DNA of 64,000 nt from Nitrospirota bacterium (GCA_963840455.1 CAWIYV010000010.1:64001-128000), one strand, 5' to 3'. Positions 46,158 through 64,000 are shown, counted from the stretch's first letter. The notes: generated from the letters alone by a model not told the origin. Translations and numbers: made by a program.

Positions 46158-46160
46158 AGT

Positions 46161-46392: not shown

Positions 46393-46406
46393 AGGGTATT
46401 TTCAAC

Positions 46407-48011
46407 ATGGGACTGACTGAATACACATCGAAACGGGAATTCGGGAAAACGCCCGAACCCAAACCGGGCTCTCCCCCCGAGAAGGGCCGTCTTCTGTTCG
46501 TTGTTCACAAGCACGCGGCACGGGCGCTTCATTATGATCTCAGGCTGGAGCTGGATGGGGTGCTGAAGAGCTGGGCAGTGCCGAAGGGCCCCTCTCTGGA
46601 GCCGTCCGCAAAGAGGCTTGCCGTCATGGTTGAAGACCACCCGTTCGATTACAAGGACTTCGAGGGCGTCATCCCGGAAGGCAATTACGGCGCAGGAAGC
46701 GTCATCATCTGGGACCGGGGATTTTATCATCACCCCTCCACGCGAGATGAAGACGAGAGCGAGAAGCTTCTTCGGGACGGTTTAGAAAAAGGCGATATGA
46801 AGTTCGTCCTTCATGGGGAAAAACTTCACGGCGAATTCGCTCTGGTGAGAACCGGAAAGGGCGGGAAGTCATGGCTGCTTCTGAAGAAAAACGATCGCAG
46901 TGCTGCCAAAGGGGACATCCTCAAGGAGAACCGTTCCGTAGAGTCCCATAAGACCTTGGAGGAGATGCTCGAAGCCGGCGGGTCGAGATCCTTCCAGCAA
47001 AGGAAATTGAACCAAATCCGTGTTCACGAGGCAATGGAAAGCGAAGACCTGAAGGACGCGCCAATCAAACCGATGCCGCACGACATAGAGCCGATGCTCG
47101 CGACCGTGACCGGCGAACCGTTCGATCATCAGGATTGGATCTTTGAAGTGAAATGGGACGGGTACCGGGCAATTGCCGAGATCCGGGAGGACGGCGTTTC
47201 GCTTTATTCCCGGAATGGGATCTCGTTCCTTAGGAAGTTTTCACCAATTGCGGAGTCACTTCGGAAACTCAGATTTGACGCTGTGCTTGACGGCGAGATC
47301 GTGGTCGTGGATGACCAGGGACGCTCTGATTTTCAGGCCCTCCAGCACTACCAGGACACAAGGAGCGGCCGTTTGCTCTACTATATTTTCGATCTGCTCT
47401 ACTTCCAGGGACACGATCTGACGGGCCTGCCGCTGCAGAGAAGGAAGGAGCTGCTGAAAAAGGTCCTCCCCTCCTCTCCGAACATACGATTGAGCGATCA
47501 CGTAGGGAAAGAGGGCGTCCTGTTCTTCAGCGTCGTCAAAGACAAGGGACTGGAAGGGATCGTCGCCAAGCATGCTCAAAGTGCCTACGAAACAGGCAGA
47601 AGGAGCCGGCAGTGGCTGAAGGTTAAGACGCGGCTCACGCAGGAGGGCGTGATCGCAGGCTTTACAGAGCCGGGGGGCAGCAGAAAATATTTCGGCGCCC
47701 TTGTCCTGGGCCACTACGATGGGGACTCGCTGGTCTCCATCGGACAGGTGGGAAGCGGATTTACCGAGAAAGATCTGAAGGATATCCGCGAAAAGCTGGG
47801 GGCCCTGGTCCAGAAGAAGTGCCCCTTTCCGGCGGCGCCGGAGACCAGTGCTCCGGTCACCTGGGTAAGGCCTGAGTTGGTCTGCGAGGTTGCATTATCC
47901 GGCTGGACCGGGGATGCCGTCATGAGGCACCCGGTTTTCCTGCGGCTGCGCGAGGATAAGGCGGCCCGCGATGTGGTGCGCGAGAAGCCCGAAGGAGATG
48001 ATGATACCTGA
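46407..48011 (+). CDS. ligD: LigD phosphoesterase + ATP-dependent ligase
   Basis: KR.F.KTPEP, H.A..LHYDLRLE, SWAVPKGP; EVKWDGYR, DGE, EGI.AK, WLKVK, RHPVF. Confidence 0.95.
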   Translation: MGLTEYTSKREFGKTPEPKPGSPPEKGRLLFVVHKHAARALHYDLRLELDGVLKSWAVPKGPSLEPSAKRLAVMVEDHPFDYKDFEGVIPEGNYGAGSVIIWDRGFYHHPSTRDEDESEKLLRDGLEKGDMKFVLHGEKLHGEFALVRTGKGGKSWLLLKKNDRSAAKGDILKENRSVESHKTLEEMLEAGGSRSFQQRKLNQIRVHEAMESEDLKDAPIKPMPHDIEPMLATVTGEPFDHQDWIFEVKWDGYRAIAEIREDGVSLYSRNGISFLRKFSPIAESLRKLRFDAVLDGEIVVVDDQGRSDFQALQHYQDTRSGRLLYYIFDLLYFQGHDLTGLPLQRRKELLKKVLPSSPNIRLSDHVGKEGVLFFSVVKDKGLEGIVAKHAQSAYETGRRSRQWLKVKTRLTQEGVIAGFTEPGGSRKYFGALVLGHYDGDSLVSIGQVGSGFTEKDLKDIREKLGALVQKKCPFPAAPETSAPVTWVRPELVCEVALSGWTGDAVMRHPVFLRLREDKAARDVVREKPEGDDDT

Positions 48012-48938: not shown

Positions 48939-50861
48939 GATACAAGACGTTCGTACTTCTCCACCGAACAGCTCCACGATCCTCTGTACCAGTGCGGGCA
49001 GCGACGGGTCCCGTGCACCCATGAGAAGAACACAGTCTCCTGATCTTGCATCGGCTCGCAATCTTGTCATGAGCTCTTCGCGATCCTTGATTGCTTGTGC
49101 ATGGAATGCCACGTTACCGAGGCCGGCGATGATATTATCCGAGGATATATCCTTTTGCGCCGTGCCTCCGGCATAATAGATCGGCAGGAGATAGAGCGAG
49201 TCGTTCTGCCGGAAACACGTTCGAAAGGTTTCGATGTATTCGTCCTTCAAAAAACGTGTCGGACCGAAGCCGTGCGGCTGGTACACGGAGATGATGCGCT
49301 CCGATAGGCCCCGGCTGGCCTGGACAACAGCCGCGATCTTTGCCGGATTGTGCGCAAAGTCATCCACCACATGAACGCCCAGCTTTGTCCTGGCAACGGA
49401 AAAGCGCCGGGCAACGCCCTCGTAGTTCCTGACCGCGCCGGCAAGGACCGTTTTGTCGCATCCGAGCTCCTCGCACACACAGAGCGCTGCAGCCAGGTTC
49501 TCGAGGTTATGCTCGCCCGGAAGCGGCAGATGATACTCCGAGCCATTGCGATAGAGCTTCACCGAGGTCGCCAGAAGTTCTTCCCGGTCCGGCCGCCACG
49601 AGGCCGAACTATTCCTGCCGAAGCGGATGTCCGCGGGGAGGGAAAAAAGGAATGGATCATCGGCATTCGAGATTGTCCGACCGGACTGCGAAGCGAGCAC
49701 TGCGAACATTGCCGTTATTTCGTCCACGCTCTTGTGGTCCTTCGAGACGTTCAGGATGACCGACACCTCGGGCCAGTACTTCACGAGCGTGCCGTCGCTC
49801 TCGTCGGCCTCAACCACGAGGAGGTCCGAACCGCCGCTCCAGGCATTGCCGATCATCCCCTGCCTCTCGAGCCTCCGCAGGCCCGCGCCGCTGATGAGCG
49901 ACGGCGACTTTTCGCAGGCCGTCAGGAACTCGAAGATCATCGCGGTTACCGTGGACTTGCCGCTCGTTCCGGCGACGGCAATGGTCTTTTTCGTATCGAT
50001 GATCGCGGCGAGCAGGTCGGACCGGTGAACAATGGGAATGCGGCGGCTGGCTGCGGCAGCGATGTCGGAGTTCGTATCCTCGATGGCTGTCGAGACGCAG
50101 ACGATATCAATGTCAGCGGTCACGCCCGACCCGTCCTGGCGAGCGATAATACAGCCGAGCCCTTCGAGTGATCGCCGGATGGCGGCGGTATCCTCGCTTG
50201 TATGGAACCGGTCGGAGCCCGAGACCACTATCCCCTGGAAGCGCAGATACTGCGCCAGCGCGCTCATGCCGCTGCCAAAGATGCCGGTTAAATGGACGCT
50301 GCGGCATTGGTGTTCGCCGATAACGAGTGCCGGAGGATCGATGTAAACGAGCGTGCCTTCTTTCACCGTGTCGAACAGGCGGATCACGTCAAGATTGCGC
50401 ATGCAGACACAGCCGTGGGACAGGGGCGTGCCGACCAGGTCCTCCCGGCCGGTGCCATGGATATAGATGTAGCGCTCATAGGAATCCACGCCCGACCCCT
50501 TGTTGATCCCTTCCTCGAGGCCTTCAAGCCGCAGGATGCGGGTCAGGATGAGGTTGTCGCCGTTCTGCTTGTGGTCCCAGTCCTCTCCCGCGTCCTCGCG
50601 GTCCCGGAACACGCGGCCCGCAGGCGCGCCGGTGCCATACTTCTCGCAGAGCCGGTGAACGCCGAGCGGGGTCTTGAGCGAGTTCTCGCGGTTGCCGTTC
50701 CCGAAGCGGGACGTGGAGCAGTCGTACCGCTCCACGATGGTGTCGTTCGAGCAGATGAAGAGCACCTGCTCCTCGATGGACACGACGATATAGCGGTCCT
50801 GCGGGCTCGTAAGATGCTTCCTTATATAGGTATGAATGCGGCGCAGTCGGGATTGGTCCAT
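48891..50861 (-). CDS. YkuD (L,D-peptidase) domain fused to a MurC/Mpl-like ligase
   Basis: TPLG.H, ILTRIL.L.G.E.G.N, YIYIHGT, SHGCV.M followed in the same frame by GIFGSGMSALA, AGTSGKST, EADESD, DDFAHNP, QPHGFG. Confidence 0.9.
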   Translation of the reverse strand: MDQSRLRRIHTYIRKHLTSPQDRYIVVSIEEQVLFICSNDTIVERYDCSTSRFGNGNRENSLKTPLGVHRLCEKYGTGAPAGRVFRDREDAGEDWDHKQNGDNLILTRILRLEGLEEGINKGSGVDSYERYIYIHGTGREDLVGTPLSHGCVCMRNLDVIRLFDTVKEGTLVYIDPPALVIGEHQCRSVHLTGIFGSGMSALAQYLRFQGIVVSGSDRFHTSEDTAAIRRSLEGLGCIIARQDGSGVTADIDIVCVSTAIEDTNSDIAAAASRRIPIVHRSDLLAAIIDTKKTIAVAGTSGKSTVTAMIFEFLTACEKSPSLISGAGLRRLERQGMIGNAWSGGSDLLVVEADESDGTLVKYWPEVSVILNVSKDHKSVDEITAMFAVLASQSGRTISNADDPFLFSLPADIRFGRNSSASWRPDREELLATSVKLYRNGSEYHLPLPGEHNLENLAAALCVCEELGCDKTVLAGAVRNYEGVARRFSVARTKLGVHVVDDFAHNPAKIAAVVQASRGLSERIISVYQPHGFGPTRFLKDEYIETFRTCFRQNDSLYLLPIYYAGGTAQKDISSDNIIAGLGNVAFHAQAIKDREELMTRLRADARSGDCVLLMGARDPSLPALVQRIVELFGGEVRTSCISGTHPGCLEFFPAKP

Positions 50862-51038
50862 GGCAATTGAAGGGACAGGTTCGAACCTGTCCCGAAAGGC
50901 AAGATACTGCATTTTAAGGAAAACGACAAGAGGGAATGTTCAGATAGGGGCCCGCGGGGCAGGATGGATTGGATCGTAGCGGGTGATCGGCAGGATGCTA
51001 CGCGATCGGTCGGAGCCCGGCGCAAAAGCCGGGCCGTG

Positions 51039-51257
51039 CTATTTCCGGCCTACCCCCTTCTCTTCCTCGCTCGAGAGTATCCGGGACTCTTTGGTCTTTG
51101 TGTTCACCTCGACGCAGTACTCCATCTCTTTCCCGTTCAGGTAGATCTTAGTGCGCACGTACCTGATCGTGTCGCACTGAGGGCAGAACTCCATTGGCCC
51201 GCAAAGCTTGAACTCCTGTTGTTCCATTTCACGGCCGCATTTCTCACAGGCATTCAT
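51039..51257 (-). CDS. small zinc-ribbon-like protein
   Basis: CEKC and CPQC pairs; GAGG RBS; hairpin downstream. Confidence 0.6.
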   Translation of the reverse strand: MNACEKCGREMEQQEFKLCGPMEFCPQCDTIRYVRTKIYLNGKEMEYCVEVNTKTKESRILSSEEEKGVGRK

Positions 51258-51391
51258 TGTGGCCTCTGTCTATAGTGATGAAAAGGGTCTTAATAATTAA
51301 GCCTAGCCCTTGACTACCCTGGGGTCTCGTTAGAACAATTTCCCGAGGCCCAGGAACACGTCCATGTCAAGAGGAAGGCCGGGGAGGTTGG

Positions 51392-51562
51392 GTAGCCTGC
51401 CATGAGCTCATAGGTCTTCCTGCCGAACAGGAGCGTGCCCCCGGTCTTCGCATTCTCCGCGGCAAATGCACCGAGCTCCGCATCCTTGTGGACCCAGCTG
51501 ATGTCGCTGTTCATGTCCGCGAAGAAGCCATCCAGCGACAGGTTATTGAAAACAACCAGTTC
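51392..51562 (-). pseudogene. DHFR/RibD-C family N-terminal fragment
   Basis: LVVFNNLSLDGFFAD....ISW...LLFGRKTYELMAGY, then truncated. Confidence 0.7.
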
Positions 51563-51629
51563 CGCTCTCTGGTCTTTTCACGAATACGGTGATGAGGCAG
51601 CTCGGGAACTTGACTCCGCCAGGCTTCCC

Positions 51630-52541
51630 TTACTCGGCGATATACCGGGACAGTCCCGCAGGTCCTGTCAGCGGCAGCTCCAGAAGGATCTCGATCCTGC
51701 CGTCCTGCAGTTCCCGCTCGCGCACCACCGTATATCCCTTGACGAAGCCCTGGATCCGTTCAGAGTATTTCCCGCCGGCCATCATGGACCCGACGCTGCG
51801 CCCGCCGTCGATCTTGATCTGTTCGATCATTCGTAGCAGGTTTCTCTGCCCATCGGCAAGGGCCGCGCGCTGAGCCATCGCCCTAGCCGCACCGGCGTTC
51901 CCGACGTCCTTGGGCGGAGATCCGACACCGGTGGCGCGGATCTTCCCCGCAGCCCAGTCAACGCCGTCGGTGGCAACGATGGGAAGAAGAACAGCGTTCT
52001 GCCGTACCCGCTGATTCTCGGGGATCGTGACGGGTGCAACGTCCTGGGCATGTCCTGGCGCTGTCGCCCGCACTTCGTACTCGCCCGCGGGCAGGTCCCT
52101 GAACTCGTACCTGCCCTCCTGGTCAATGTGGCTGGCTGCTCGCTCCTTTCCCTCATGGATGAGCTTCACTTCGCTGTCGCGTAGCGGCGGGATGACCCTG
52201 CCTGCCAGGACCGCCTTGCCCGATCCCGGCACGATCAGAATGGACGGGATCACGGTCGTCTCTCCCGGCTTCACAACGACGTTCTCCAGGCGGATCGGGA
52301 AAGACGAGACAGGAGCTGACACCATGATCGTATAGGTCCCTGCCGCGAGCGGCAGCCTGAACTTCCCGTCCTGCCCTCCGGCGCGCGTCATAGCGATGAC
52401 CTTGCCTTCCTGGATCGCAGAGACCTGCGCCGTCGCGTCGCTCGGCACCAATGTCCCTTCGACCGCACCCTCTTGGGCGGCGCCGCCGGCAAAGGATGAA
52501 AGAACCACCAAGATGAGGATCAGCGTGATAGATATTCGCAT
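51630..52541 (-). CDS. exported protein with two carboxypeptidase-regulatory-like Ig domains and an LPP20-like C-domain
   Basis: signal peptide; DG.F...L..G.Y twice; VDW..G.IRATG.G...MA.RAA..D..RNL. Confidence 0.75.
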   Translation of the reverse strand: MRISITLILILVVLSSFAGGAAQEGAVEGTLVPSDATAQVSAIQEGKVIAMTRAGGQDGKFRLPLAAGTYTIMVSAPVSSFPIRLENVVVKPGETTVIPSILIVPGSGKAVLAGRVIPPLRDSEVKLIHEGKERAASHIDQEGRYEFRDLPAGEYEVRATAPGHAQDVAPVTIPENQRVRQNAVLLPIVATDGVDWAAGKIRATGVGSPPKDVGNAGAARAMAQRAALADGQRNLLRMIEQIKIDGGRSVGSMMAGGKYSERIQGFVKGYTVVRERELQDGRIEILLELPLTGPAGLSRYIAE

Positions 52542-52767
52542 TGTTCCCTCCTTGAATAGTTCAAGTATAACACAGGCATTGCAGGGATACCGCGCACCCA
52601 TCTCTCCCCGCGGCACATCGTGGCTGGCCCTAATCCTTCCGTCGGTATGCAGAATGTGCTTTGAGCTATGAGCAGCAAGGTGTGGAAAGGAATTTCAAGC
52701 CGGGGACGTGACGCTATTGAATTTTTCTCCAGAAGATGCGTGAGATATCAGGCCTGTGGCCGAGCGC

Positions 52768-53619
52768 TTAGTCGGACAGTTCAGAAGAGGGGGATGACCC
52801 CTCGGTCGTCCGGACCGGGAATTCCGGGCTCCCGGCCGGCGCGGGCCCTGTGGTGTCCTGCTCCGGGGCGATCCCCTCCATAAGCTCCTGCTTGATGAAC
52901 TCCCGGACGAACTCCCGCTCCCGGTCGCCTATCTTCAGGAATTTCACGGCCATTCCCGGGATCTTCCGCTTGTTCTCGCCGAAGTGGCTGAACAGGACCT
53001 GCCCCTCGACCCGGATGGGCCATCCGGGTGCGTTCGGCAGGTGGAAGGTGAACGGGAGGACCATCCCGATGGACAGGGGCACCAGCGTGCTCACGAACAT
53101 CCCGCGCTCCGAGATGGCGGTGATGAGGTCGCTCCGGCCGCTATCCGCGGAACGCCCGTCCTCCAATTCCACGTCAAGCTTGGTTGTCAGCCTCAGGAAC
53201 CTGCGCGGCCGCTTCTGCGTGGCCTCGACGGTCGCATACAGGTCTTCCAGGCTGCAGGGGTGGCGCAGGAACGCCGAGCATCCTGCTGCCTCGCAGGCCT
53301 GTTGTATGTCCGGGGAGCGGTTGGAGGTATAGATGATGAAGGGGACGCCGCGCGTCCTAGGGTCGCGCCTGACCCGCGTAAGGAGCTCGAGCCCGGTCAT
53401 TTGCGGAAGGTCGTGGTTGGCGATGATGACGAGCGGGACCGTTAGGCCAAGGAACAGAACAGCATCCTCCGCGGTCTTCGCCATGATTACCTGGTAATGG
53501 AGCCGCTGCAGGAATATGCTGGTGTAGAACTGCCGCATGGGCCTGGCATCCACGACCAGGATGACCTGCTGGTTCGCCGACGTGTCCTTCGGCGCATGCT
53601 GGGGAACAGTATTGTCCAT
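52768..53619 (-). CDS. REC-like + PilZ domain protein
   Basis: ILVVD receiver with Asn at the phospho-site; RRFLR, ISERGMFV, GMAVKF. Confidence 0.85.
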   Translation of the reverse strand: MDNTVPQHAPKDTSANQQVILVVDARPMRQFYTSIFLQRLHYQVIMAKTAEDAVLFLGLTVPLVIIANHDLPQMTGLELLTRVRRDPRTRGVPFIIYTSNRSPDIQQACEAAGCSAFLRHPCSLEDLYATVEATQKRPRRFLRLTTKLDVELEDGRSADSGRSDLITAISERGMFVSTLVPLSIGMVLPFTFHLPNAPGWPIRVEGQVLFSHFGENKRKIPGMAVKFLKIGDREREFVREFIKQELMEGIAPEQDTTGPAPAGSPEFPVRTTEGSSPSSELSD

Positions 53620-53695
53620 GCTCTCCTCCTCCGGCTGGCCGGGCCCCCGTAGGGCCGGTTTGCGAGGGGCCGATGCATAAAAGTGCATTGAAGCT

Positions 53696-53760
53696 CCCTG
53701 CAGCATGCTGCAGGGAATCTTCGATCCTCAAGGAATTAGCGTTATTCTGATCGCTCACCA
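53696..53760 (+). repeat. dispersed repeat, copy 2
   Basis: ccctgcagcatgctgcagggaatcttcgatcc...tctgatcgctc. Confidence 0.7.
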
Positions 53761-53930
53761 ACCCCCTGCACTCGCGGTTCCACTCGTAAACGCAGGGGGC
53801 AAGACCCCGAAGTAAACTGCGTGGATTGAGCTCTCTCCTAGGTTCAGTGGCTGAGGGTACTCCGGACGGAGGTTCCTGTCAACAGGTTCGATGGGACATT
53901 TTTAAGATACCCTGGGCTCGTACCGGGAGC

Positions 53931-54239
53931 TCAGCAGCGGGTGATCAGGACCGTGACGCCTGCTGCCACAGCAAGGACCGCGAGAATGACGCCGCTTCCA
54001 GTGAAGCGAACGTGCAAGAGCGACATCAGGCCGCCCGCGACCAGCCAGACCCCGAAAAGGATGCTCCCTATATGCGTACTGATCTTTTCGCTGCTGTCCG
54101 CGATGAAGAACAGGATGCCGGTCACGATGCCGAGTACGGCGAGGATGATGCCACTTTTCGAGAACGAGATGCCGCCGAGATGGACCAGTCCCGTGAGGAC
54201 CAGCCAGATGCCAAGAAGGATGTTCATCCAGGTCTTCAT
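53931..54239 (-). CDS. four-TM small membrane protein, copy 1 (intact)
   Basis: 102 aa, internal two-fold repeat (G.WLV..GL......F..SG.ILAVL....G). Confidence 0.8.
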   Translation of the reverse strand: MKTWMNILLGIWLVLTGLVHLGGISFSKSGIILAVLGIVTGILFFIADSSEKISTHIGSILFGVWLVAGGLMSLLHVRFTGSGVILAVLAVAAGVTVLITRC

Positions 54240-54392
54240 AAGGAGGTTCCGTGAGGCAAGTGATTAGCAACCGATACAAATGTTAATTATGAGGCCTGAC
54301 GCCCGATATCCGTGCCCCTTTTTGTTGTTGAAACTTTTTTTTAATGATATAATCCTCCGCAAAAGACAAAAGGGAATATCTGGCCCGCAACC

Positions 54393-55289
54393 ATGGCACT
54401 TCTTAAAAGAATAATTTTTGGATCTTTGATGGCATTAGTCGCCTGCTTCCACGGTTTTGGGGCTTCAGCAGAAGAGGCTGTAAAGGAATTCAGGGTCGGG
54501 CTCATCGGCGTGGATGCGGGACAGATCCTGCAGGATTTCGATCCCTTCGTGGAATATTTGAGAATCCGTCTCAGGCGTTCCGGGATTCGGGATGTAACGG
54601 TCTTCGTCGCAAAGGACCTTGACCAGATGCACACCCGTATACAAGAAGGAAAGCTGGACTTCATTCTCACCTCCCCTTTCCCGATTGTTGAAATGGAGCG
54701 CGATAAACTCGTACCCTCGGTCCTCGCCTGGCAGGGAGCGGCCCGTGAATACTCCGCGGTATTTTTTGTACGAAAACGGAGCTCCCTGCAAGATCTGAGC
54801 GACCTGCAGGGAAAGACGGTCGTTTTCGGGACACCTTCGTCCACAGCGGCATACGCCATGGCTAAAGCCGAACTGAAAAAGAACAAATTATCCATGAGCG
54901 AATCGACGGACGAACATGCGCCCGAATATGCGATTCGGTATGAGTTTGCCGGCGAGGCGATCAACCAGGCATTCCGGGTCATCCTGAACCGGGCGGACGC
55001 CGGCGTTTTCAGCAGCAGCGACTGGTTGGAGCTTCCCCGGAAGGAACGGTCCAAATTACGGATCATTCACCGTACAACGCCGGTCACCCACCTGCTCGGC
55101 TCGTTCCACCCGTCTTTTCCGCCGGCCCTCAGGGAAGTCGTTGAGAAAACGCTGATCGATATGTCCGGGAACGGGAAGGGACGGACTGCATTGGCCACGG
55201 CGTTGAATATGACAAAATTTGAACGGCTGACGGAGGAAGACAGGCGCTCCTTTCACCATCTTAAACAGCTTCTGTCTGCCGCGGAGTAA
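54393..55289 (+). CDS. PhnD-like periplasmic substrate-binding protein
   Basis: signal peptide; Y.AVFFVRK.S....LSDLQGKT..FG...ST motif. Confidence 0.85.
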   Translation: MALLKRIIFGSLMALVACFHGFGASAEEAVKEFRVGLIGVDAGQILQDFDPFVEYLRIRLRRSGIRDVTVFVAKDLDQMHTRIQEGKLDFILTSPFPIVEMERDKLVPSVLAWQGAAREYSAVFFVRKRSSLQDLSDLQGKTVVFGTPSSTAAYAMAKAELKKNKLSMSESTDEHAPEYAIRYEFAGEAINQAFRVILNRADAGVFSSSDWLELPRKERSKLRIIHRTTPVTHLLGSFHPSFPPALREVVEKTLIDMSGNGKGRTALATALNMTKFERLTEEDRRSFHHLKQLLSAAE

Positions 55290-55292
55290 ATC

Positions 55293-56654
55293 ATGAGGAT
55301 CAACATCAACAAGAAATACGCTCTCTTCTTCGGTATCAGCAGCGTCGCGATCATGCTGATCCTGGTCGCATCCTTCGCCTTTATTGTGGTCAAGAAAGGG
55401 GCGACGCTCAAGAAGAACATCAAAGTCAATGACGCCGTCTTTTACCGGGAGAGCCAGGGAAAAACGCTCTTCAATATCGCCCAGTACCTGAGTCAGCATC
55501 TTTTCATTCCTCTGTATCAAACCGATATCGGCGCAGTCAACCGCCTGATCAACGACATGAAGCTCGGACTGCCGTTCAAATCGTTTGTCGTGGCCGACTC
55601 GAAGGGCATGATTCTGACCGATGGGTCCCGCCAGAATAACGCTTTTGGAACAAAGCTTGACGTGAACTTGGAGCGGCTGAAGAAACAACCGATCATTGTG
55701 GAAAATACCGAGCAGGGGGAACGCATTTCTTTTGCGATTAAATCAAAAGAACACGTCGCCGGATACGGCCAGCTCATCTATTCGAACGAACCCCTGATGG
55801 CCGCGATAGCAAAAATCCACTCCCTATTCGATTCGGAATGGATGGACTTCGGGGCGGTGTTCCTGCGGATCAGCCTGATCGGCATCGCGGCATCGCTGGC
55901 TGTAGCGGCGCTGCTGAGCTTTCTGTTTTCCGGCACCATCTCCCGTCCGCTCATCCTTCTGAGGCACGCCGCAAACCGCGTCGCGCAAGGCGACCTTGAT
56001 TGCCGCGTTGAAATCGATACCCATGACGAGATAGGAGAACTGGCGGCAACCTTCAACCAGATGGTCGCGGACATGAAGCGGTCGACCGAACAGCTTCAAG
56101 AGGCCAACCGGAAACTTCACGAGGTCTCCATCACGGACGGCCTTACCGGCCTGTGCAATTACGCGCACTTCATGGACGAGCTGAAAAAGGAGGAGGCCCG
56201 GGCCCGGCGGAGCAATTCGAACTTCGGTGTCATCCTCTTCGATCTCGATCTGTTCAAGGAGGTGAACGATACCTACGGCCATGAAAAAGGGAACATCCTG
56301 CTCAGGGCGGTGTCCGACATCCTGAAGGCGAATGCACGGCGAATGGATACCGTGGCGCGCTACGGAGGCGAGGAGTTCGCCATGCTCATGCCGGACAGCA
56401 AAGGTGCGGAGCGGGAGGTGGCTGAGCGCATACGGAAAAAGATCGAAAGCACGGATTTCACGGGTATCGCAGACACCCCCCTCAGGATCACGATCAGCGG
56501 GGGCGTCTGCACCTATCCCCGGGACGCACAGAGCGTGAACGAGCTGCTCGACAAGGCTGACAAGGGATTGTATACGGCAAAGACCGGCGGCAGGAACAAG
56601 ACGTGTTATTGCGAACCGCTCGGCACCTCGCAGGGGCAGGCGGGAAGCTCCTAG
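55293..56654 (+). CDS. membrane diguanylate cyclase (periplasmic domain, HAMP, GGDEF)
   Basis: two TMs; HAMP (DEIGELA..FN.M); DLD.FK.VND.YGH..G, RRMD I-site, GGEEF. Confidence 0.95.
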   Translation: MRININKKYALFFGISSVAIMLILVASFAFIVVKKGATLKKNIKVNDAVFYRESQGKTLFNIAQYLSQHLFIPLYQTDIGAVNRLINDMKLGLPFKSFVVADSKGMILTDGSRQNNAFGTKLDVNLERLKKQPIIVENTEQGERISFAIKSKEHVAGYGQLIYSNEPLMAAIAKIHSLFDSEWMDFGAVFLRISLIGIAASLAVAALLSFLFSGTISRPLILLRHAANRVAQGDLDCRVEIDTHDEIGELAATFNQMVADMKRSTEQLQEANRKLHEVSITDGLTGLCNYAHFMDELKKEEARARRSNSNFGVILFDLDLFKEVNDTYGHEKGNILLRAVSDILKANARRMDTVARYGGEEFAMLMPDSKGAEREVAERIRKKIESTDFTGIADTPLRITISGGVCTYPRDAQSVNELLDKADKGLYTAKTGGRNKTCYCEPLGTSQGQAGSS

Positions 56655-56875
56655 GCATCAGACCTTGCCGGCGATAACTCAATCTTTACGTCTGACTGTT
56701 CGCACCCCTCAACCAGCGCGCGCGATTGTCAGACTGGAGAGGTCGGCATGATGACGCTGTTAAACCACAATGGGGGCATTTGGGGGAACGTTTTTTCTAT
56801 CCATGATTTATTAGAGGTAGCGGGAGTAAAGCAATCTTAGCCTTATTGATCTGACCACGGCCTCTTGCTCGATGC

Positions 56876-57185
56876 TCAGCGGCGGGTGATCAGGACCGTG
56901 ATACCTGCTGCCACGCCAAGGACCGCGAGAATGACGCCGCTTCCGGTGAAAGCGAACGTGAAAGAGCGACACCAGGCCGCCCGCGACCAGCCAGACCCCG
57001 AGAAGGATGCTCCCTATATGCGTACTGATCTTTTCGCTGCTGTCCGCGATGAAGAACAGGATGCCGGTCACGATGCCGAGTACGGCGAGGATGATGCCAC
57101 TTTTCGAGAACGAGATGCCGCCGAGATGGACCAGTCCCGAGAGGACCAGCCAGATGCCAAAAAGGATGTTCGCCCAGGTCTTCAT
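56876..57185 (-). pseudogene. four-TM small membrane protein, copy 2 (+1 frameshift)
   Basis: 310 bp versus 309 bp; extra A at 56949-56951. Confidence 0.8.
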
Positions 57186-57316
57186 AAAGAGCCTCCGTGC
57201 GGGAAGTAGCCTGCCTCCAGGAGGAGCGTTCATGATGAATCGTGACACAAGGTAGGCCTCCCGATAACGTGAGAATATAGGAATTGGTTTGGTGCGTTAA
57301 CTGCTCAACGAAAATT

Positions 57317-57375
57317 AAAAGGCCGAGAGGTAATTCCTCCGGCCTTCTGTCAATTCAAGCAATGTGACAACTCAA
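57317..57375 (-). repeat. conserved non-coding element, copy E1
   Basis: GGCCG..AGG...CCTCCGGCC hairpin plus TGTGACAACTCA. Confidence 0.6.
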
Positions 57376-57516
57376 GTATAAACATGAACGATGCGGTGCT
57401 GGGCAAAGATCAAACTGCACGACCTGACCCTAAGTAGTCCTTGATAACTGACTGGGGACTCTCTGATCAGGTCAATTTGGCCCGCAACGTCCCCTCTGCC
57501 TGCACAGATGAGGCGA

Positions 57517-58200
57517 TTAGAACGAGGATATTTCTCGTTCCTTACCGCGGGAAGGGTTCTGACTGACAAGGGCCTCGATGGCGCGCTGCGCAGCGGGGTC
57601 AATACGGGAGAACCGTACGCCGTAGCGGCCCCCGTCATTCCTCACGATCTCCGCCTGCATCGAGAAGGACCTCGCGGGGGCAAGGTCGAGCGAATACCGC
57701 AGCAGGTCGCCCCGGTGCAGCTCGGCATCGGCTTTGATCAGCATGCCCGTCACGCTGATGTTCTCGGTGAGGCAATCTATGGACATACGCGTGGCCCCGC
57801 TGATCCGGGCGCTGAACTGCGCGTGGAAACTGCTGCGGGCGGGAATGCTCAGGAGCTCGTTGACCTTCCGGCGAAGCACGTCTCCGCGAAGCGGCAGCGT
57901 CAGGACAGCATTGGCCCTGCACTGGGCGGCCTCCCCGAGCTCGATCTCGTTGTTGCGGCAGCACACGATGATCGAGACATCGCGCAGTTCCCCGTCATCC
58001 CGGATCTGGGTGCAGAACTGCTTGGTGCTCATGCCCGAGCCGTAGAGCTCGGTGATGATGAGGGCCGCCTTCTCCTTGCGGTGGATCTTCAGGGCGTCGG
58101 CGTTCGAATATGCCGTGAGCACCTCGAGGTCGGACAGCTCCTCGAAGAAATCAAGGCCTACGTTCTGCTTGACGCGGTCGGTGAAGATGATCTTTTTCAT
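57517..58200 (-). CDS. REC-like + PilZ domain protein
   Basis: receiver fold with Glu at the phospho-site; NISVTGML, YGVRF; RxxxR degenerate. Confidence 0.8.
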   Translation of the reverse strand: MKKIIFTDRVKQNVGLDFFEELSDLEVLTAYSNADALKIHRKEKAALIITELYGSGMSTKQFCTQIRDDGELRDVSIIVCCRNNEIELGEAAQCRANAVLTLPLRGDVLRRKVNELLSIPARSSFHAQFSARISGATRMSIDCLTENISVTGMLIKADAELHRGDLLRYSLDLAPARSFSMQAEIVRNDGGRYGVRFSRIDPAAQRAIEALVSQNPSRGKEREISSF

Positions 58201-58444
58201 GACAAGTGCCTCCCCCCAAGCACGGGATATTCCCGCGTGAGTGCCGGTACGAGGCGAAGGTCTGCAAGACGAACAGGGAGATAAAGGACGAGCAGAGTGT
58301 CGAGAGCGCGCCGCATCCTGCCGTGCAGGTGTTAGAGAAATGATAACACCGATCTACTCCGCTTTCCATACAATATTTATGGTCTTTTTTTTGGACGGAG
58401 AGGCGGAGGCTGGCCGATAGACTCCGCATCAGAATCCGGAGCGC

Positions 58445-59134
58445 TCAATGCTGCGCAACGCTCGCAACTGCGTCCCCCAGGCACTCCACATCGGGCAGGG
58501 CCACCATTGCAGCCGCCTTCCTGGCATCCCTGATCTCCTGGGCATTCAACTGCCATCCGTAGGTCTTCGACCGCATCAGGTTTTCATCAGAGTCCTGGCG
58601 ATGGGGCAGGGACAAGCCGTGACCGCACTCATGGGCGGCTGTGCGCGCTGCTGGATGCCGGGCGGGATGTTCGGCAGGCCTTAGAATGGGCGTGTCGCGC
58701 ACCTGGATGTCGTGGTCGCTCCGAAAGTACCCGTTCAGACCAGTGCCTCCCTGCAGTACCGGCTTGAACCAGATGTCCATGCCCTGCTCCAGGGGCTCGT
58801 CATCCAGAACAATCTGCATTATGAAAAAGATCCCGGCCTGGGACAGCCAGATATGGTTGATCTCGTCCAGGATATCCTTGAACTCCTGCGGGTTGCGCCC
58901 GCTTTCTCCGAGATGGACGCGGAGCGGGATGCGATAGACAGGGCCCAGAGGAAACGATGGGGCAAGGCAGCCATCGATGTGGACAGAGGCCAGCTGTTGC
59001 TGGGCAGTGTCTTGCGCAGCGGATACAGCATCCAGGGAGAGCAACACAAGAACTACCATCGACAGAAGTGCGGTGTTTTTCAGGACTGCCTGAAGCCGAT
59101 CCCGATGTTGATAGTACCCCTTGACAATGATCAC
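58445..59134 (-). CDS. exported metzincin-like zinc metalloprotease
   Basis: hydrophobic leader; HECGHGLSLPH and NLM Met-turn. Confidence 0.75.
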   Translation of the reverse strand: MIIVKGYYQHRDRLQAVLKNTALLSMVVLVLLSLDAVSAAQDTAQQQLASVHIDGCLAPSFPLGPVYRIPLRVHLGESGRNPQEFKDILDEINHIWLSQAGIFFIMQIVLDDEPLEQGMDIWFKPVLQGGTGLNGYFRSDHDIQVRDTPILRPAEHPARHPAARTAAHECGHGLSLPHRQDSDENLMRSKTYGWQLNAQEIRDARKAAAMVALPDVECLGDAVASVAQH

Positions 59135-59253
59135 GGTATCTCCGCCTGAAGAGGATGGTACAGCACAGGGAATGCTAACTCTGAACACGGGGATATTGCA
59201 ATACTGAAAGAAGACCTCATTCATGATGACGAGACCGGTACCTAAACATAAAC

Positions 59254-59336
59254 AGAAGGCCGGAGAGATCATCTCTCCGGCCTTTTCATTAATACAGTAT
59301 GCGACATCTCAATAACTACGGAATAAAGTCTAAACC
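59254..59336 (-). repeat. conserved non-coding element, copy E2
   Basis: hairpin plus TGCGACATCTCAATAACTACGGAAT..AGTCT.AACC. Confidence 0.7.
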
Positions 59337-59397
59337 AACCACCACCCTGCAGCAGCCGGTGCCGGATGACTGACAGACACTGCCTTGCCGGGCGGTG

Positions 59398-59610
59398 CTA
59401 AGTATCAGGCCGTGAGTGGACTGACGGCCAACCGGCTTCGTATCCAATAACAGTTCCATCGTTCTCTGCATACCAAAGATTCGTCCTGCACGCAGACAGC
59501 CGCGTCTTGCCTGTCGAACGATCCCTCGCCTTCAGTATCCGCCTGAAGAGAGAAAGTCCGACGAAGTTCAACAGGCGAAGGTCGCGTATATGCTTCATGT
59601 GAACGTTCAT
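59398..59610 (-). CDS. possible small ORF downstream of a sigma54 promoter
   Basis: lies between the promoter and the E2 terminator hairpin; no recognisable family. Confidence 0.3.
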   Translation of the reverse strand: MNVHMKHIRDLRLLNFVGLSLFRRILKARDRSTGKTRLSACRTNLWYAENDGTVIGYEAGWPSVHSRPDT

Positions 59611-59666
59611 GGGAACCACTCTTTCCTGAAAAAAGCACGCCCTGTACTACTCTTTGCCGAATGAAA

Positions 59667-59682
59667 AGCAAGACCTGTGCCA
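59667..59682 (-). promoter_or_regulatory. sigma54 (-24/-12) promoter
   Basis: minus strand TGGCAC-AGGTC-TTGCT consensus match. Confidence 0.7.
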
Positions 59683-59921
59683 CATGAAAACCTGGAGATA
59701 TCAGCAGGATAGCAGGAACAAGGGTAGGGGGGGAAACCGACAGGCGCGATTTGATAGGTTATATGGCCGGCTATACTGGGCCAGGAAAATTCCCTCTGAA
59801 TTCCTCACCTGATCATCGTCGGAATCAAAAAATCAATCCACTACCTCAAGCCAGACCCCGGATCGTCTATAGTAATGTCCACAGTAACGTTAAGATTTGA
59901 TCCCATATTCTTATTCTTAGC

Positions 59922-60788
59922 CTATATAATGACCTTTTGATCACGGACCCTGAGATGGGCGGTACATGTCCTTGCCACGAGCGGGTTCGCGAGTTCGGGC
60001 GGGATCCCCAGGTCCTTCAGGACGCATTCGGACAGTTCCTGCAGATCCGGATGGCTGCTCTGGTGCGAACACCGTCTGACCGCATCATGGATGCGCTGCA
60101 GGTACTCCAGGCCCGCATCCATGCGATCGTAGGCCATGGCCCCGGTGCTCGGTTCGTCCCAGGAAGGAAGAAGAAAACGGATGCCCTGCACCGCCTTCAG
60201 TCTTTTTATAGAGGCGACCGAGGCCAGGACATCCTCGTAGATCGGCAGTTCGCCCGGGACCGGGATGGCGTCTCCCGAGAAGAGCACATTGTATCCGAGC
60301 AGCAGGATGGAGAGCGAGCCTCGCGAATGGCCCGGCGTGTACAGCACGTTCAATTTCAGGCCGCAGCCCAGGTCAAAGACCTCGCCGTCTTCGAGCAGCC
60401 TGTTCACGGCAAGCGATCCGGCGACGAGCGTATCGAAATCAGGCACAGGCCGCTCCCCGGCCTGAAGCTGAACGTTCTCGATCCATGCCCTTTCCGCGGG
60501 ATGAGCTGCGACCGAGCACGCCGTTTCTCCCTTAATGGTCCTGGATGCGCCGATATGGTCCGGATGAGCATGCGTCTGGATGATCAGCGAAATATCGCTT
60601 ACTTTCCGGCCCGTACTTCGCACATAGTCGAAGATCGCCTGCTCCGCTGACGCCACGCCGGTGTCGATAAGAAAGACCCCCTGCGTGCCGTAGATGAGAT
60701 AGACGTAGACGAACCGGTCCACGAACCCCTGCGGCATCAGGATGCGGAACGGGACCTTGATAGCGTGAACGTGCCTGTCGATCTGCAA
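59922..60788 (-). CDS. MBL-fold metallo-hydrolase
   Basis: LIDTG, THAHPDHIG, TPGHS, FSGD; the last His motif reads LPSWD; TTG start after GGAGAA. Confidence 0.88.
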   Translation of the reverse strand: MQIDRHVHAIKVPFRILMPQGFVDRFVYVYLIYGTQGVFLIDTGVASAEQAIFDYVRSTGRKVSDISLIIQTHAHPDHIGASRTIKGETACSVAAHPAERAWIENVQLQAGERPVPDFDTLVAGSLAVNRLLEDGEVFDLGCGLKLNVLYTPGHSRGSLSILLLGYNVLFSGDAIPVPGELPIYEDVLASVASIKRLKAVQGIRFLLPSWDEPSTGAMAYDRMDAGLEYLQRIHDAVRRCSHQSSHPDLQELSECVLKDLGIPPELANPLVARTCTAHLRVRDQKVII

Positions 60789-60860
60789 GGTAGTGAATGT
60801 TCTCCGCGAGCATACTATCGAATCTAATAACATTATGCAAGGCGAAACAGGAAAGGAATG

Positions 60861-60942
60861 AAAAGGCCGGAGAGCATATCCCTCCGGCTTTTGTCGATCA
60901 CAGCGATGTGACATCGCAATAACTACGGAATCAGGTCTGACC
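60861..60942 (-). repeat. conserved non-coding element, copy E3
   Basis: hairpin plus TGTGACATCGCAATAACTACGGAATCAGGTCTGACC. Confidence 0.7.
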
Positions 60943-60976
60943 GCTTACGACTATTACGAATGTCCACAGCCTAGGC

Positions 60977-61284
60977 TCAGAGGCGGGTGATCAGGGCCGT
61001 GACGCCTGCTGCCACAGCAAGGACCGCGAGAATGACGCCGCTTCCGGTGAAGCGAACGTGCAAGAGCGACATCAGACCGCCCGCGACCAGCCAGACCCCG
61101 AGAAAGATGCTGCTATCTGCGTAGCGAGCTTTTCGCTTCCGTCCGCGATGAAGAACAGGATACCGGTCACGATGCCGAATACGGCGAGGATGACGCCGCT
61201 TTTCGAGAAGGAGATGCCACCGAGATGGACCAGACCCGTGAGGACCAGCCAGATGCCAAGAAGGATGTTCGCCCAGGTCTTCAT
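60977..61284 (-). pseudogene. four-TM small membrane protein, copy 3 (-1 frameshift)
   Basis: 308 bp; gctgcta versus gcttccta in copy 4, near 61110. Confidence 0.8.
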
Positions 61285-61632
61285 AAGGAGACTCCGTGCG
61301 GTAAGTGATCAGCTTCCGGTAAGAATGTTAATTATGATGCCTGATCCTGGACGGACTTGAATCTTGTTCTTTACGCGTGCAACTTTTTTATCCTTTTCTG
61401 AATACCGTGAAAATATACCCCGTTTATTATGGGCTCTCCCTCTTGACTCCTGCTATAATTTAATCATGCAGTTTTCGGTACCCCTTAATTGATAGACCCT
61501 GACAAGGAATGCACGCGAACACAAAGAGGATGAAAGTGATTAAAATTGTTTATGGTTATGATCAGGGAGTTGTTTACCTTATATTAACCTTGCAAGCGCA
61601 TGCTTGCACATCTAACGAGTAGGAGGAAAGAA

Positions 61633-61944
61633 ATGAAGAAAGTTATTTTTTTGACAGGAGTATTAGTTCTTGGGTTGGCTTCGTTTTCGGGACAGGCCGC
61701 ACTCGCCGGCGAAACAACAGGTGAATATATCGACGATGCTACGATCACTACACAGGTTAAGGGGATAATCGCTAATGACATGGAGAGTCGTTTTTTCAAG
61801 ATCGAAGTGACGACAACAAAGGGAGAAGTTGTTCTCAAGGGATCTGTGAACAGCAATGATACCGAAGCACGGCTGGTAGGAAAGATCAAAGAGATCAAGG
61901 GCGTCAAATCCGTGAAGAGCCTCTTGAAGGTGGAAAAGAAATAA
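61633..61944 (+). CDS. BON domain protein (OsmY-like)
   Basis: AGGAGG RBS, signal peptide, GEYIDDATIT..VK, I.V.T..G.V.L.G.V, GVKSV. Confidence 0.92.
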   Translation: MKKVIFLTGVLVLGLASFSGQAALAGETTGEYIDDATITTQVKGIIANDMESRFFKIEVTTTKGEVVLKGSVNSNDTEARLVGKIKEIKGVKSVKSLLKVEKK

Positions 61945-61978
61945 TGACGAAGAGGCATTCTGTGAAAGGGTAGGCTTT

Positions 61979-62030
61979 GGGGTCAGATCTTTATCGTCAA
62001 CATCGATGTCAACAATAAAGATTTGGCCCC
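61979..62030. repeat. inverted repeat GGGGTCAGATCTTTAT...ATAAAGATTTGGCCCC
   Basis: 16-bp imperfect arms; related GGGTCAG...CTGACCC arms at 62674-62725. Confidence 0.65.
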
Positions 62031-62204
62031 TTTTATTGAACATTTATTATGAGTGGCAGGACAAAGGAAGGAGGTGCATGTCAAACCGCAAGACTTGATC
62101 CTAATAACCGTCCTACTCCCCCAATCGTCAAAGAAAGCAGCGTAGCAACAAAGGCGATCTAGCCCTCAGATATCTCCTTCCCCTTAAGACATGTAGTTGA
62201 ATGA

Positions 62205-62300
62205 CAAACACCGAAGTCAGGCAGGTTCACACGTTCGTCATGGTTCGTGAAAAGGACGTGCTCGATAACCTCGCGGACATGATCCTCGGCTTCTGTCACC
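62205..62300 (-). pseudogene. GPW/gp25 baseplate-family fragment
   Basis: EDHVREVIEHVLFT...ERVNLPDFG motif; truncated. Confidence 0.55.
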
Positions 62301-62542
62301 GAAACGCCATGCGTCCTTGGGTTCGAACACCGCCCTTTGCGGCCTGTCGTACAGGCTCTCCGCCACAAACAGGCGGAGGTGTCGCACCGGCACATATTTC
62401 TACTGGCAGCGTGAAGCTATGCCAGCATTCGGTAATCGTGTACCGCTTCTGGCGGTCGGGAAATGACCCGCCAGATCATCATGTGCTAAGCCTTGTCCGG
62501 CAACGGGAACAAGCGACGTCCTGTGCGGGCATGAGTTGGCGG

Positions 62543-62627
62543 CATGCCCTTTCCGCGGGATGAGCTGCGACCGCACACGCCATTTTTCCCTTAATGGTCC
62601 TGGATGCGCCGATATGGTCCGGATGAG
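62543..62627 (-). pseudogene. 85-bp duplicate of the MBL gene segment 60484-60568
   Basis: near-identical sequence covering the HPDHIG motif. Confidence 0.85.
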
Positions 62628-62761
62628 TTGGTCATGACCACCGGCATAGCCCGTGTTTTGCTTAAGCCCCATAGGGTCAGGGCGTCTCGGGGACGATAGT
62701 ATATCCCCTATGCCTTTTCTGACCCCCTACGTCCCCCGGCCCTCAGCCTCTTGCAGGGAGC

Positions 62762-63070
62762 TCAGAGGCGGGTGATCAGGACCATGAAGCCTGCTGCCAA
62801 GGCAAGGACCGCGAGAATGACGCCGCTCCCGGCGAAGTGTATGTGAAAGAGCGAGACCAGACCGCCCGCGACCAGCCAGACCCCGAGAAAGATGCTTCCT
62901 ATCTGCGTAGCGAGCTTTTCGCTTCTGTCCGCGATGAAGAACAGGATACCGGTCACGATACCGAGCGCGGCGAGGATGACGCCGCTTTTCGAGAAGGAGA
63001 TGCCACCGAGATGGACCAGGCCCGTGAGGACCAGCCAGATGCCAAGAAGGATGTTCGCCCAGGTCTTCAT
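62762..63070 (-). CDS. four-TM small membrane protein, copy 4 (intact)
   Basis: 102 aa, GGAGG RBS; paralogue of 53931-54239. Confidence 0.82.
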   Translation of the reverse strand: MKTWANILLGIWLVLTGLVHLGGISFSKSGVILAALGIVTGILFFIADRSEKLATQIGSIFLGVWLVAGGLVSLFHIHFAGSGVILAVLALAAGFMVLITRL

Positions 63071-63267
63071 AAGGAGCCTCCGTGCGGGAAGTAATTAGCC
63101 TCCAGTAAGAATGGACCGGTCATGTGCGAGCAGGATGGAGCGCGCCGATCCAGGCAGCAGGTAACAGCCCAGGGTAGGGTAGAGGTACAAACTATATATA
63201 GAGTAAACCTGGTACAAGTATAGCACCGCTGCAACCCGCAGAAGCTTCAGGGTATCTCTATAACAAT

Positions 63268-63342
63268 AAAGGCCGGAGAGCTCCCTCTCTCCGGCCACTT
63301 AGGTTTCATAAAAATTAGGATCTCAATATTTAAGTCTGAACC
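63268..63342 (-). repeat. conserved non-coding element, copy E4 (diverged)
   Basis: hairpin plus ATCTCAATA...AAGTCTGAACC. Confidence 0.55.
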
Positions 63343-63354
63343 CAGATAGACCGT

Positions 63355-63511
63355 GAGATCGATCAGCACATCGAAAAGGCTCTACCAATACGGCAGGCAG
63401 ACGATGGACCAGCAGCTCATTCAGCTTTGCAGAGACGAACCCATAACGCTCGATGAGGCAAAGCGCATCACCCGCTCAAAAGACCTTGAGCGAAAACTGA
63501 TATTCAGTTAA
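63355..63511 (+). pseudogene. PilT/PilU-like ATPase C-terminal fragment
   Basis: QYGRQTMDQQLIQL....ITLDEA matches the GMQT.DQ.L..L...I..EEA tail. Confidence 0.5.
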
Positions 63512-63544
63512 GACGCGAAAAATAGACTGAATAAGAGCGAGCGC

Positions 63545-63622
63545 ATTCCCCGTAGCTTGGCTACGGGATTAGCGAGCGATTAGAATAACAATAACTTCCT
63601 TGCGGATCGAAGACTCCCTCAG
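63545..63622 (-). repeat. dispersed repeat, copy 3
   Basis: reverse complement GAGTCTTCGATCCGCAAGGAA...TTCTAATCGCTCGCTAATCCCGTAGCCAAGCTACGGGGAAT. Confidence 0.7.
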
Positions 63623-63625
63623 TCA

Positions 63626-64000
63626 TCATCTCGAGCCCGGTCCCGGACCGCCTCTTCTTTCGTGATGGCCGGAGGGGCACCGCCAGATCTTTTCGCCCGG
63701 GTACCAGATCATTTTCTTATAACAGACCGGGCAGGACTTCTTGTTGGCACCTGACTGGCCACCGGACCGTGATGGGCCCTTTTTCGATCCCGCGGGCTCG
63801 TTTACCATGGATGCCGGTTCGATAGAGGACGAGGCGGCCTCGTCGGTCAACCCCGGAGTCTCGGCGGGTGTCGGTGCGTCCATCGGTTCGCTCTTCTGTT
63901 CGCTCGTACCCTGGACCGCACCCGTAGATGGTTCTTCATGTCCGCAGGTAAAGCACTGCCAGATGTTCTCAAGCTCGAGCAGGTGGAACGGCCCCCCGCA
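63626..64000 (-). CDS. partial zinc-ribbon repeat protein (5' end outside the window)
   Basis: open frame to the window edge: CGG...IWQCFTCGHEE and CPVC...IWRCPSGHHE. Confidence 0.65.
   Translation of the reverse strand, partial: CGGPFHLLELENIWQCFTCGHEEPSTGAVQGTSEQKSEPMDAPTPAETPGLTDEAASSSIEPASMVNEPAGSKKGPSRSGGQSGANKKSCPVCYKKMIWYPGEKIWRCPSGHHERRGGPGPGSR

Follow-up and report, generated by a model that had tools for sequence, protein, structure and literature searches.

Variable chromosomal regions free of mobility genes are common, and their turnover is poorly understood. The cassettes of integrons lie in one orientation, are mostly promoterless and have the tyrosine recombinase IntI encoded next to the array; their attC sites are imperfect palindromes that measure about 57-141 nt and contain R''-L'' and L'-R' boxes. 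Where such sites cluster but no integrase is present, the term CALIN is used. The translocatable unit of IS26 consists of cargo and one repeat, sits between direct repeat copies and moves to another copy. The minimal mobile elements of Neisseria show variable content at a fixed place without mobility genes, and their exchange is ascribed to recombination between homologous sequences in the conserved flanks (2007; PMC3787668). Flexible genomic islands are described as being of an additive type, in which integrases or transposases flank the cassettes, and of a replacement type, which holds gene clusters of similar assigned function and no mobility genes (PMC4033161). Here we analyzed an array at positions 53931-63622 of a 64,000-nt stretch of a Nitrospirota genome (the window; C10:64001-128000 of genome G000, which comprises 4.03 Mb in 14 contigs). 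In this array, four copies of a membrane-protein gene (M) and four copies of a hairpin (E) lie around mutually unrelated genes (the cargo). The array is probably not a dedicated cassette machine but a chromosomal region of flexible content, prone to recombination, in which local duplication, horizontal replacement and deletion have been at work. It offers a compact natural example of such a region in an uncultured, sulfate-reducer-like Nitrospirota lineage.

M is a gene of 309 nt encoding a hydrophobic membrane protein of 102 aa. Its four direct copies (M1 to M4) all lie on the minus strand between 53931 and 63070, with start-to-start spacings of 2946, 4099 and 1786 nt. An earlier account made from the DNA alone (the sequence-only reading) had described recurring M and E copies around unrelated cargo, with M spaced at roughly 1.5-4 kb, and on both points it was borne out. 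BLAST of all four units against the whole genome found M at these four places only. The copies were 87.8-94.3% identical in pairs over 334-371 nt, and the repeat extended over the coding sequence plus 28-62 nt upstream, with a limit that differed from copy to copy, and faded at most ~25 nt past the stop codon.

Misassembly, with the copies being mis-joins or collapsed or expanded repeats, was considered. The sole groEL gene of the genome is frameshifted, so single-base indels in the assembly may be errors, and the frameshifts of M2 and M3 could be of that kind. Against an artefact, every M junction was recovered in independent assemblies (L040, L044, L050, L058, L061 and contigs of sequencing run X6). 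Both flanks of M1 recurred in L050 and both flanks of M4 in L044; the upstream flank of M2 was found in L040 and its downstream flank in an X6 contig (56010-56937), and the flanks of M3 in L061 and a further X6 contig (60484-61042). Moreover, the copies diverge by 6-12%, which is too much for repeat collapse. We therefore regard an assembly artefact as extremely unlikely. Part of the stretch was contained in 20 of the 23 sequencing runs listed (at most 0.43 of the sampled words; no RNA run was listed), and the contigs of runs X1, X5, X6 and X8 covered the array in short pieces, none of them spanning it whole. One X5 joint, from 54105 to 57338, had a 24-nt side and was out of register, and it was left unused.

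We compared M across G000, its congeners and 22 metagenome loci, with a genome-level search for M spanning 41 genomes, and found that the genes around M differ among close relatives. The nearest congener (G003, ~88% identity) carries one block of 88.7% identity to 57511-61074, which holds REC-PilZ b, the zincin-motif gene, E2, the MBL-fold hydrolase gene (MBL) and E3 and has one M on each side. G003 is without 54246-57510 (the periplasmic binding protein gene SBP, the diguanylate cyclase gene DGC, M2 and E1) and without 61075-62725 (the 5' part of M3, the BON-domain gene, a gp25-like fragment and an MBL stub). In G005, a single M lies between REC-PilZ b and a PilZ/MBL pair, and in G004 M was found beside a SurA-like gene and beside a PIN/Fic pair. 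Across the 22 metagenome and 5 genome loci, the neighbours of M were recombinations of one set, consisting of REC-PilZ a and b, the metzincin-like gene, MBL, SBP/DGC, a zinc-ribbon gene, BON, the gp25-like fragment, the SurA-like gene and AsmA. The metagenome orders included REC-PilZ b, M, REC-PilZ a; zinc-ribbon gene, M, MBL stub, gp25-like fragment; zinc-ribbon gene, M, DGC, SBP, PilT; metzincin-like gene, M, AsmA; and SurA-like gene, M. In L044 the zinc-ribbon gene directly adjoins M, without the PilT stub that G000 has. The contents of the interval from AsmA to DUF1579 differ almost completely among G019, G003 and G000. Different genes were thus found between the same conserved genes when G000 was compared with G003, G005 and the 22 metagenome loci, which supports the shuffling hotspot that the sequence-only reading had proposed. 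Many structural variants of the locus can be recovered from public metagenomes.

Compared with minimal mobile elements, the array is alike in that gene content varies between conserved genes in the closest relatives and that mobility genes are absent. It differs in its conserved flank, here a paralogous gene that recurs within the region and stands in duplicate around cargo, so that several variable intervals are chained. The likeness to flexible genomic islands lies in a chromosomal spot present in all strains with differing genes; the array has no integrases or transposases, unlike the additive type, and its cargo is functionally mixed, unlike that of the replacement type.

M is a protein-coding gene under purifying selection and not a site, with a median dN/dS of 0.26 (152 pairs among 18 intact copies). 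Its decay is frequent: among 28 full-length copies drawn from G000, three congeners and the 22 metagenome loci, 18 were intact, one was open with a GTG start and nine were disrupted, and four partial copies were found in addition. The positional counterpart of M2 in L040 is intact and 96.4% identical, and an independent contig (L057) carries a frameshift at the very spot of that in M3. At E<=1e-3, 116 proteins matched M1, nearly all of 101-102 aa, and close copies (E<1e-30) among the 41 genomes were confined to G000, three of its five congeners and G010. In the tree of M, M1 and M2 formed one group and M3 and M4 another, with one G003 copy in each. This fits two old paralogues, each of which may have been doubled in the G000 lineage around new cargo. 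The structure model gave four helices at low confidence (mean pLDDT 53.3). Intact M1 and M4 had no Pfam match above cut-off, NCBIfam had none for M, and the nearest clusters in a protein atlas are unnamed and mostly from Chloroflexota. M resembles DUF308 (HdeD-like, PF03729) in being short, with paired hydrophobic helices and an internal repeat, but the intact copies stay below the Pfam cut-off and the borderline score came from the frameshifted M2 reading frame only (25.9 bits against a cut-off of 25). M defines an unannotated family of four-helix membrane proteins that often adjoin REC-PilZ signalling genes, and a functional link between M and cyclic-di-GMP receptors may exist.

E forms a perfect, GC-rich hairpin, GGCCGGAGAG-loop-CTCTCCGGCC, preceded by an A-tract and followed by a T-tract; the stems have 9-13 perfect pairs and the loops 3-6 nt, giving 23-29 nt overall. 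With its GC-rich stem-loop, its T-run and its place after a gene, E is predicted to be an intrinsic (rho-independent) terminator, and E2, E3 and E4 score terminator-like on the minus strand. E2 and E3 share an extra 33-nt flank (88% identical). Beyond the window, where extended coordinates continue the count (position in L001 plus 64000), six further copies lie at 65188, 67004, 70686, 72865, 75123 and 77654. The last of these (E10) follows the groEL stop codon, and the same hairpin follows groEL in G001 and G005. E6, E7 and E8 bear remnants of 30-75 nt of the groEL 3' end (the GGMGG...GGGMY coding tail, with the stop codon in one), which indicates that these copies arose by segmental duplication of the gene tail together with its terminator. 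Counted at no more than one mismatch per 10-nt arm, which omits the degenerate E1 and E3, the genome has 11 E-type hairpins, and 8 of them lie within 21 kb (C10:121000-142000; binomial P ~9e-17); the other three are at C4:120184, C4:129653 and window position 4821. Exact copies numbered 3-7 per congener genome. Such local clustering (8 of 11 in 4.03 Mb) is unlike repetitive extragenic palindromic sequences or miniature inverted-repeat transposable elements, which are scattered over the genome in many copies. Relative to M, E stands 130-200 nt upstream of M2 and M4 and 83 nt downstream of M3, and there is none at M1. The proposal that M and E are dedicated landmarks of recombination or insertion was therefore not upheld, in that M is a selected gene and E a likely terminator without fixed relation to M. 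The E copies would persist by insulating neighbouring genes.

The two-gene unit SBP+DGC (54356-56696) differs in its distribution from the rest of the array. It was not found in the five congeners (88-100% complete), which gave only short matches to the GGDEF motif, and it was found in two genomes of other genera, at 88% over 2341 nt in G019 and 85% over ~2270 nt in G022. By comparison, identity to both of these genomes is 75% for HtpG, 73-74% for the S41 peptidase and 84% for groEL, and the genes flanking SBP+DGC in G022 are 70-76% identical. The GC content of the unit is 0.53-0.54, compared with ~0.58 for the contigs. This excess similarity points to recent horizontal movement of the unit, for which the case from G022 appears firmer than that from G019 owing to the divergent flanks. 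Neither G019 nor G022 has M near SBP+DGC, so the unit moves without M. Beside M it occurs in two settings: in G000 it lies between M1 and M2, and in L046 it has PilT on one side and, on the other, an M next to the zinc-ribbon gene.

No integrase or transposase domain was detected by a Pfam-type scan of the window (58 open reading frames of 1-52616 and those of 52768-64000), in agreement with the sequence-only reading, which had seen none and had advised a search for a recombinase past 64000; the 25 open reading frames of the next 19 kb held none either, nor did the 85 open reading frames of the relatives' loci. The genome has six PF00589 matches, none in the window or the next 19 kb. Two of them are full-length tyrosine recombinases, on C1 and C9, and the nearest trace on the contig is a fragment ~380 kb away. 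A composite transposon or insertion sequence, with its transposase gene and terminal inverted repeats, is not what is seen here, given that there is no transposase domain and that the M copies lie in direct orientation and differ in their upstream limits. The inverted copies of the dispersed repeat R at the two ends are members of a family that gives BLAST hits in the hundreds.

An integron-like or other site-specific array, with E or M as the site of an integrase encoded elsewhere, would account for a hairpin every 1.6-3.7 kb between unrelated genes, and the recurrence of hairpins at kilobase spacing with no integrase nearby is also what the array has in common with CALIN. However, E is a perfect palindrome of 23-29 nt with an A-tract and a T-tract, no attC-like structure was found at the array and an Rfam scan of 50000-64000 had no match at E<=1, the cargo genes occupy both strands, and the array contains an exact sigma-54 consensus. 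Three E copies plainly derive from a groEL 3' end with its terminator, which speaks for duplication and not for site-specific capture, and in G001 and G005 the same hairpin serves groEL as its conserved terminator. Given the short perfect hairpins, the cargo on both strands and the lack of an Rfam match, and with only two full-length tyrosine recombinases in the genome, we judge such a system very unlikely. The cassette-like capture that the sequence-only reading had envisaged finds little room for the same reasons, namely cargo in both orientations, no nearby recombinase, and breakpoints in G003 and L041 that are not in-register M x M. That reading's simpler alternative, repeated duplication and decay, fared better in part: it accounts for the frameshifts in M, for the MBL stub and for the tails of groEL, but not for the foreign SBP+DGC. 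In its pure form, in which resident genes are duplicated in place and differentially lost with no horizontal input, it is favoured by the frameshifts of M2 and M3, by the fragmentary MBL, PilT and gp25-like stubs, by the groEL tails at three E copies, by a 74% identical BON paralogue on C9 and by many further local direct repeats in the genome. The genes between the repeats are mutually unrelated, though, SBP+DGC is missing from the five congeners and 85-88% identical in two other genera (housekeeping genes 73-75%), and the cargo is lower in GC (0.48-0.54 versus ~0.58), and we hold a purely local origin to be distinctly improbable.

A recurring pattern is cargo bracketed by a direct duplication of a neighbouring gene or gene tail. 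M brackets SBP+DGC, M with a piece of MBL brackets BON and the gp25-like fragment, and a groEL tail with terminator recurs four times; in G019, a 135-nt direct repeat of the DGC 3' end (93%; L032:11054-11188 and 13749-13883, on G019:C65) encloses two genes, one of the Band7/zinc-ribbon kind and one unknown. Single-crossover integration of DNA with a homologous segment would be expected to produce this pattern, as would segmental duplication followed by differential deletion. If the former prevailed, cassettes would be exchanged at M by homologous recombination without any site-specific recombinase: recombination between two M copies, or between two modules of terminator and gene tail, would release a circle of cargo plus one anchor, which would re-enter by a single crossover at any anchor in the same or another Nitrospirota genome and leave the anchor duplicated around the cargo. 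The outcome would be integron-like, running on general recombination, and would resemble the IS26 unit in having cargo plus one repeat between two direct copies; here the repeat is a membrane-protein gene without transposase, and only general recombination could drive movement. The direct anchor repeats just listed, the sister pairs M1/M2 and M3/M4, the occurrence of SBP+DGC next to M in both G000 and L046, and the zinc-ribbon gene directly beside M in L044 argue for this route. Short contigs make circle and linear junctions indistinguishable, SBP+DGC also occurs in G019 and G022 away from M, and in neither G003 nor L041 does the breakpoint fall within the anchor in register; on balance we consider the route unlikely. 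To our knowledge, natural transformation has not been reported for this organism. If true, anchored exchange would be a simple means of gene capture that dispenses with an integrase; otherwise the locus keeps its use as a catalogue of duplication and deletion scars.

Our preferred reading, of a flexible region under duplication, replacement and deletion, would proceed from two ancestral M paralogues, a left type (M1/M2) and a right type (M3/M4), each now present twice in this lineage, with the extra copy of each type bracketing DNA absent from the nearest congener. Three processes may have acted: local segmental duplication copying a gene or gene tail together with a terminator, whereby E terminators would have been carried along; entry of foreign or ectopic genes such as SBP+DGC; and deletion leaving the MBL, PilT and gp25-like stubs, the groEL tails and those M copies that are truncated or carry frameshifts. 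The genes for M and the terminator modules would act as passive homology of 85-370 nt for general recombination of the host, and as scars, so that cargo between them would easily be lost, swapped or moved. The sequence of events and the part played by homologous recombination are both our inference. At this locus, the places where genes were gained or lost are delimited by repeats internal to the region (a paralogous gene, and copied terminators with gene tails).

Several observations weigh against this reading. Homologous recombination at M is plausible, but neither of the two breakpoints that could be examined falls inside M in register. Next to its right-hand M, G003 keeps 98 nt of an M 3' end, so its difference from G000 did not come from an in-register M3 x M4 crossover, and L041 is without 53647-56859, with both end points outside M1. 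M1 is 95.5% identical to M2 and 92.7% identical to its positional counterparts (gap excluded), by which gene conversion between M1 and M2 is weakly suggested; a strong conversion of M1 by M2 was rejected as unproven once a 21-nt deletion in the counterparts was excluded. Plain duplication does not usually concentrate a single terminator sequence so extremely in one place. As to horizontal entry, AsmA and DUF1579 on the G019 contig with SBP+DGC (C65) are also 85-86% identical, so the G019 identity could come from a mis-binned contig of that metagenome-assembled genome. PilT abuts SBP in G019 and L046, and in G000 the PilT stub lies 6.7 kb off, beside the zinc-ribbon gene, which calls for at least one further rearrangement.

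Table 1. Features of the array, in window coordinates unless a locus is named.
Feature	Position	Strand	Remarks
M1	53931..54239	-	intact 102-aa reading frame; 4 helices predicted, low-confidence model
M2	56876..57185	-	one extra T, frameshift near 3' end
M3	60977..61284	-	one base missing, 70-aa reading frame
M4	62762..63070	-	intact 102-aa reading frame; positional counterpart in L044 96.1% identical
E1	57318..57347	.	degenerate hairpin downstream of REC-PilZ b
E2	59256..59331 (hairpin 59256-59285)	-	terminator hairpin and shared 33-nt flank; same position in G003
E3	60863..60938 (hairpin 60863-60892)	-	terminator hairpin and shared flank, 83 nt downstream of M3
E4	63271..63296	.	terminator hairpin
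groEL 3' coding-tail remnants	L001:2999-3139, 6740-6767, 8860-9009		beside three terminator hairpins, far from groEL
SBP (cargo 1)	54393-55289	+	phosphonate-type periplasmic binding protein, Pfam E 7.8e-41
DGC (cargo 1)	55293-56654	+	HAMP-GGDEF diguanylate cyclase, Pfam E 4.4e-43
REC-PilZ b	57517..58200	-	Pfam PilZ E 2.7e-13; conserved in G003, G005, G001
Zincin-motif ("metzincin") protein	58445..59272	-	HECGHGLSLPH in translation; true start probably inside the reading frame
Sigma-54 promoter	59667..59682	-	exact consensus, upstream of small reading frame 59398-59619
MBL-fold hydrolase	59922..60914	-	Pfam Lactamase_B E 4e-25
BON-domain protein (cargo 2)	61600..61944	+	Pfam BON E 6.6e-13; 74% identical paralogue on C9
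gp25-like fragment	62159..62395	-	weak Pfam GPW_gp25 E 7.6e-4, below curated cut-off
MBL stub (second MBL copy, 85 nt)	62543..62627	-	95% identical to 60484-60568
PilT/T2SSE ATPase 3' stub	63353..63511	+	matches full-gene 3' ends in G005 (L015:14084-15151) and G019 (L032:7715-8782)
R1 (dispersed repeat R)	53687..53848	+	left edge of array; 279 BLAST hits on 11 contigs; 85% identical to extended 72656-72817
R2 (inverted copy of R)	63526..63619	-	from repeat comparison

The features of the array are collected in Table 1. The labels that the sequence-only reading had given to the cargo stood for SBP, DGC, REC-PilZ, MBL, BON, the MBL and PilT fragments and the sigma-54 promoter; the gp25 assignment is weak, and the metzincin is a motif only, with neither a Pfam nor an NCBIfam match for the protein. 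The gp25-like fragment is 71% identical to a 146-aa reading frame in G019. The listed MBL reading frame overlaps E3, so its real start is probably further in. SBP, DGC and BON lie on the plus strand and the rest of the cargo on the minus strand. A REC-PilZ or PilZ gene very often adjoins M (window 52768-53706 and 57517-58200; L015, L014, L040, L041, L050 and L056). Proteins related to those of the window carry source labels of Nitrospirae/Nitrospirota metagenome-assembled genomes.

Past the PilT stub, a zinc-ribbon gene runs from window 63626-64000 to extended 64762 (L062:227-1363, minus strand) and encodes 378 aa, of which the N-terminal half is a coiled coil; the protein also has two CxxC zinc ribbons. 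The gene adjoins M in G000, L044 and L046, and G003 has two copies. Its product was considered as a recombinase and rejected, with no Pfam family at cut-off and zinc-ribbon fragments as the best matches (E 0.002-0.06). The sole groEL of the genome (one tblastn match) lies at L001:13710-15369 (extended 77710-79369) on the minus strand, in two overlapping frames with the frameshift after ...TVAKE; either the assembly has an indel error here or an essential gene is broken. An AsmA-family gene lies between a CarboxypepD_reg gene and M in G003 (L014:8100-10082), with small remnants there in L058; in G000 the AsmA-family gene is found only on C11:619013-621108. The M copy of L041 had seemed much better conserved than its flanks (65-71% by tblastn), but by BLASTN the flanks were 80-90% identical and no anomaly was left.

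Inverted copies of R happen to bracket the array, and the R family as a whole gives hundreds of BLAST hits (247-474 over 11 contigs, with many in all five congeners), including L001:909-1095 and 8648-8833. R contains the hairpin CCCTGCAG-CATG-CTGCAGGG. A 52-nt palindrome after the BON gene (window 61979-62030) also matches G019:C61 and G004:C16. A turn in GC skew near the array was considered as a sign of a replication origin or terminus and dismissed, the skew being negative along the entire contig with a local bump only.

Across the genome, 94 local direct-repeat segments were counted, many of them inside repeat-protein genes; others form stretches at C4:102-130 kb and C11:836-869 kb. The process thus operates beyond this locus as well. 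These two repeat-rich stretches span C4:102000-130000 and C11:836000-869000, and a piece of ~400 nt from the latter (C11:838290-838689) recurs in the M loci L049 and L059. At window 43554-48011, 6 kb from the array, lies an end-joining repair set of two Ku genes, a LigD primase-polymerase and a LigD ligase with a phosphoesterase domain; its proximity is perhaps coincidence, but end joining could produce out-of-register deletion scars.

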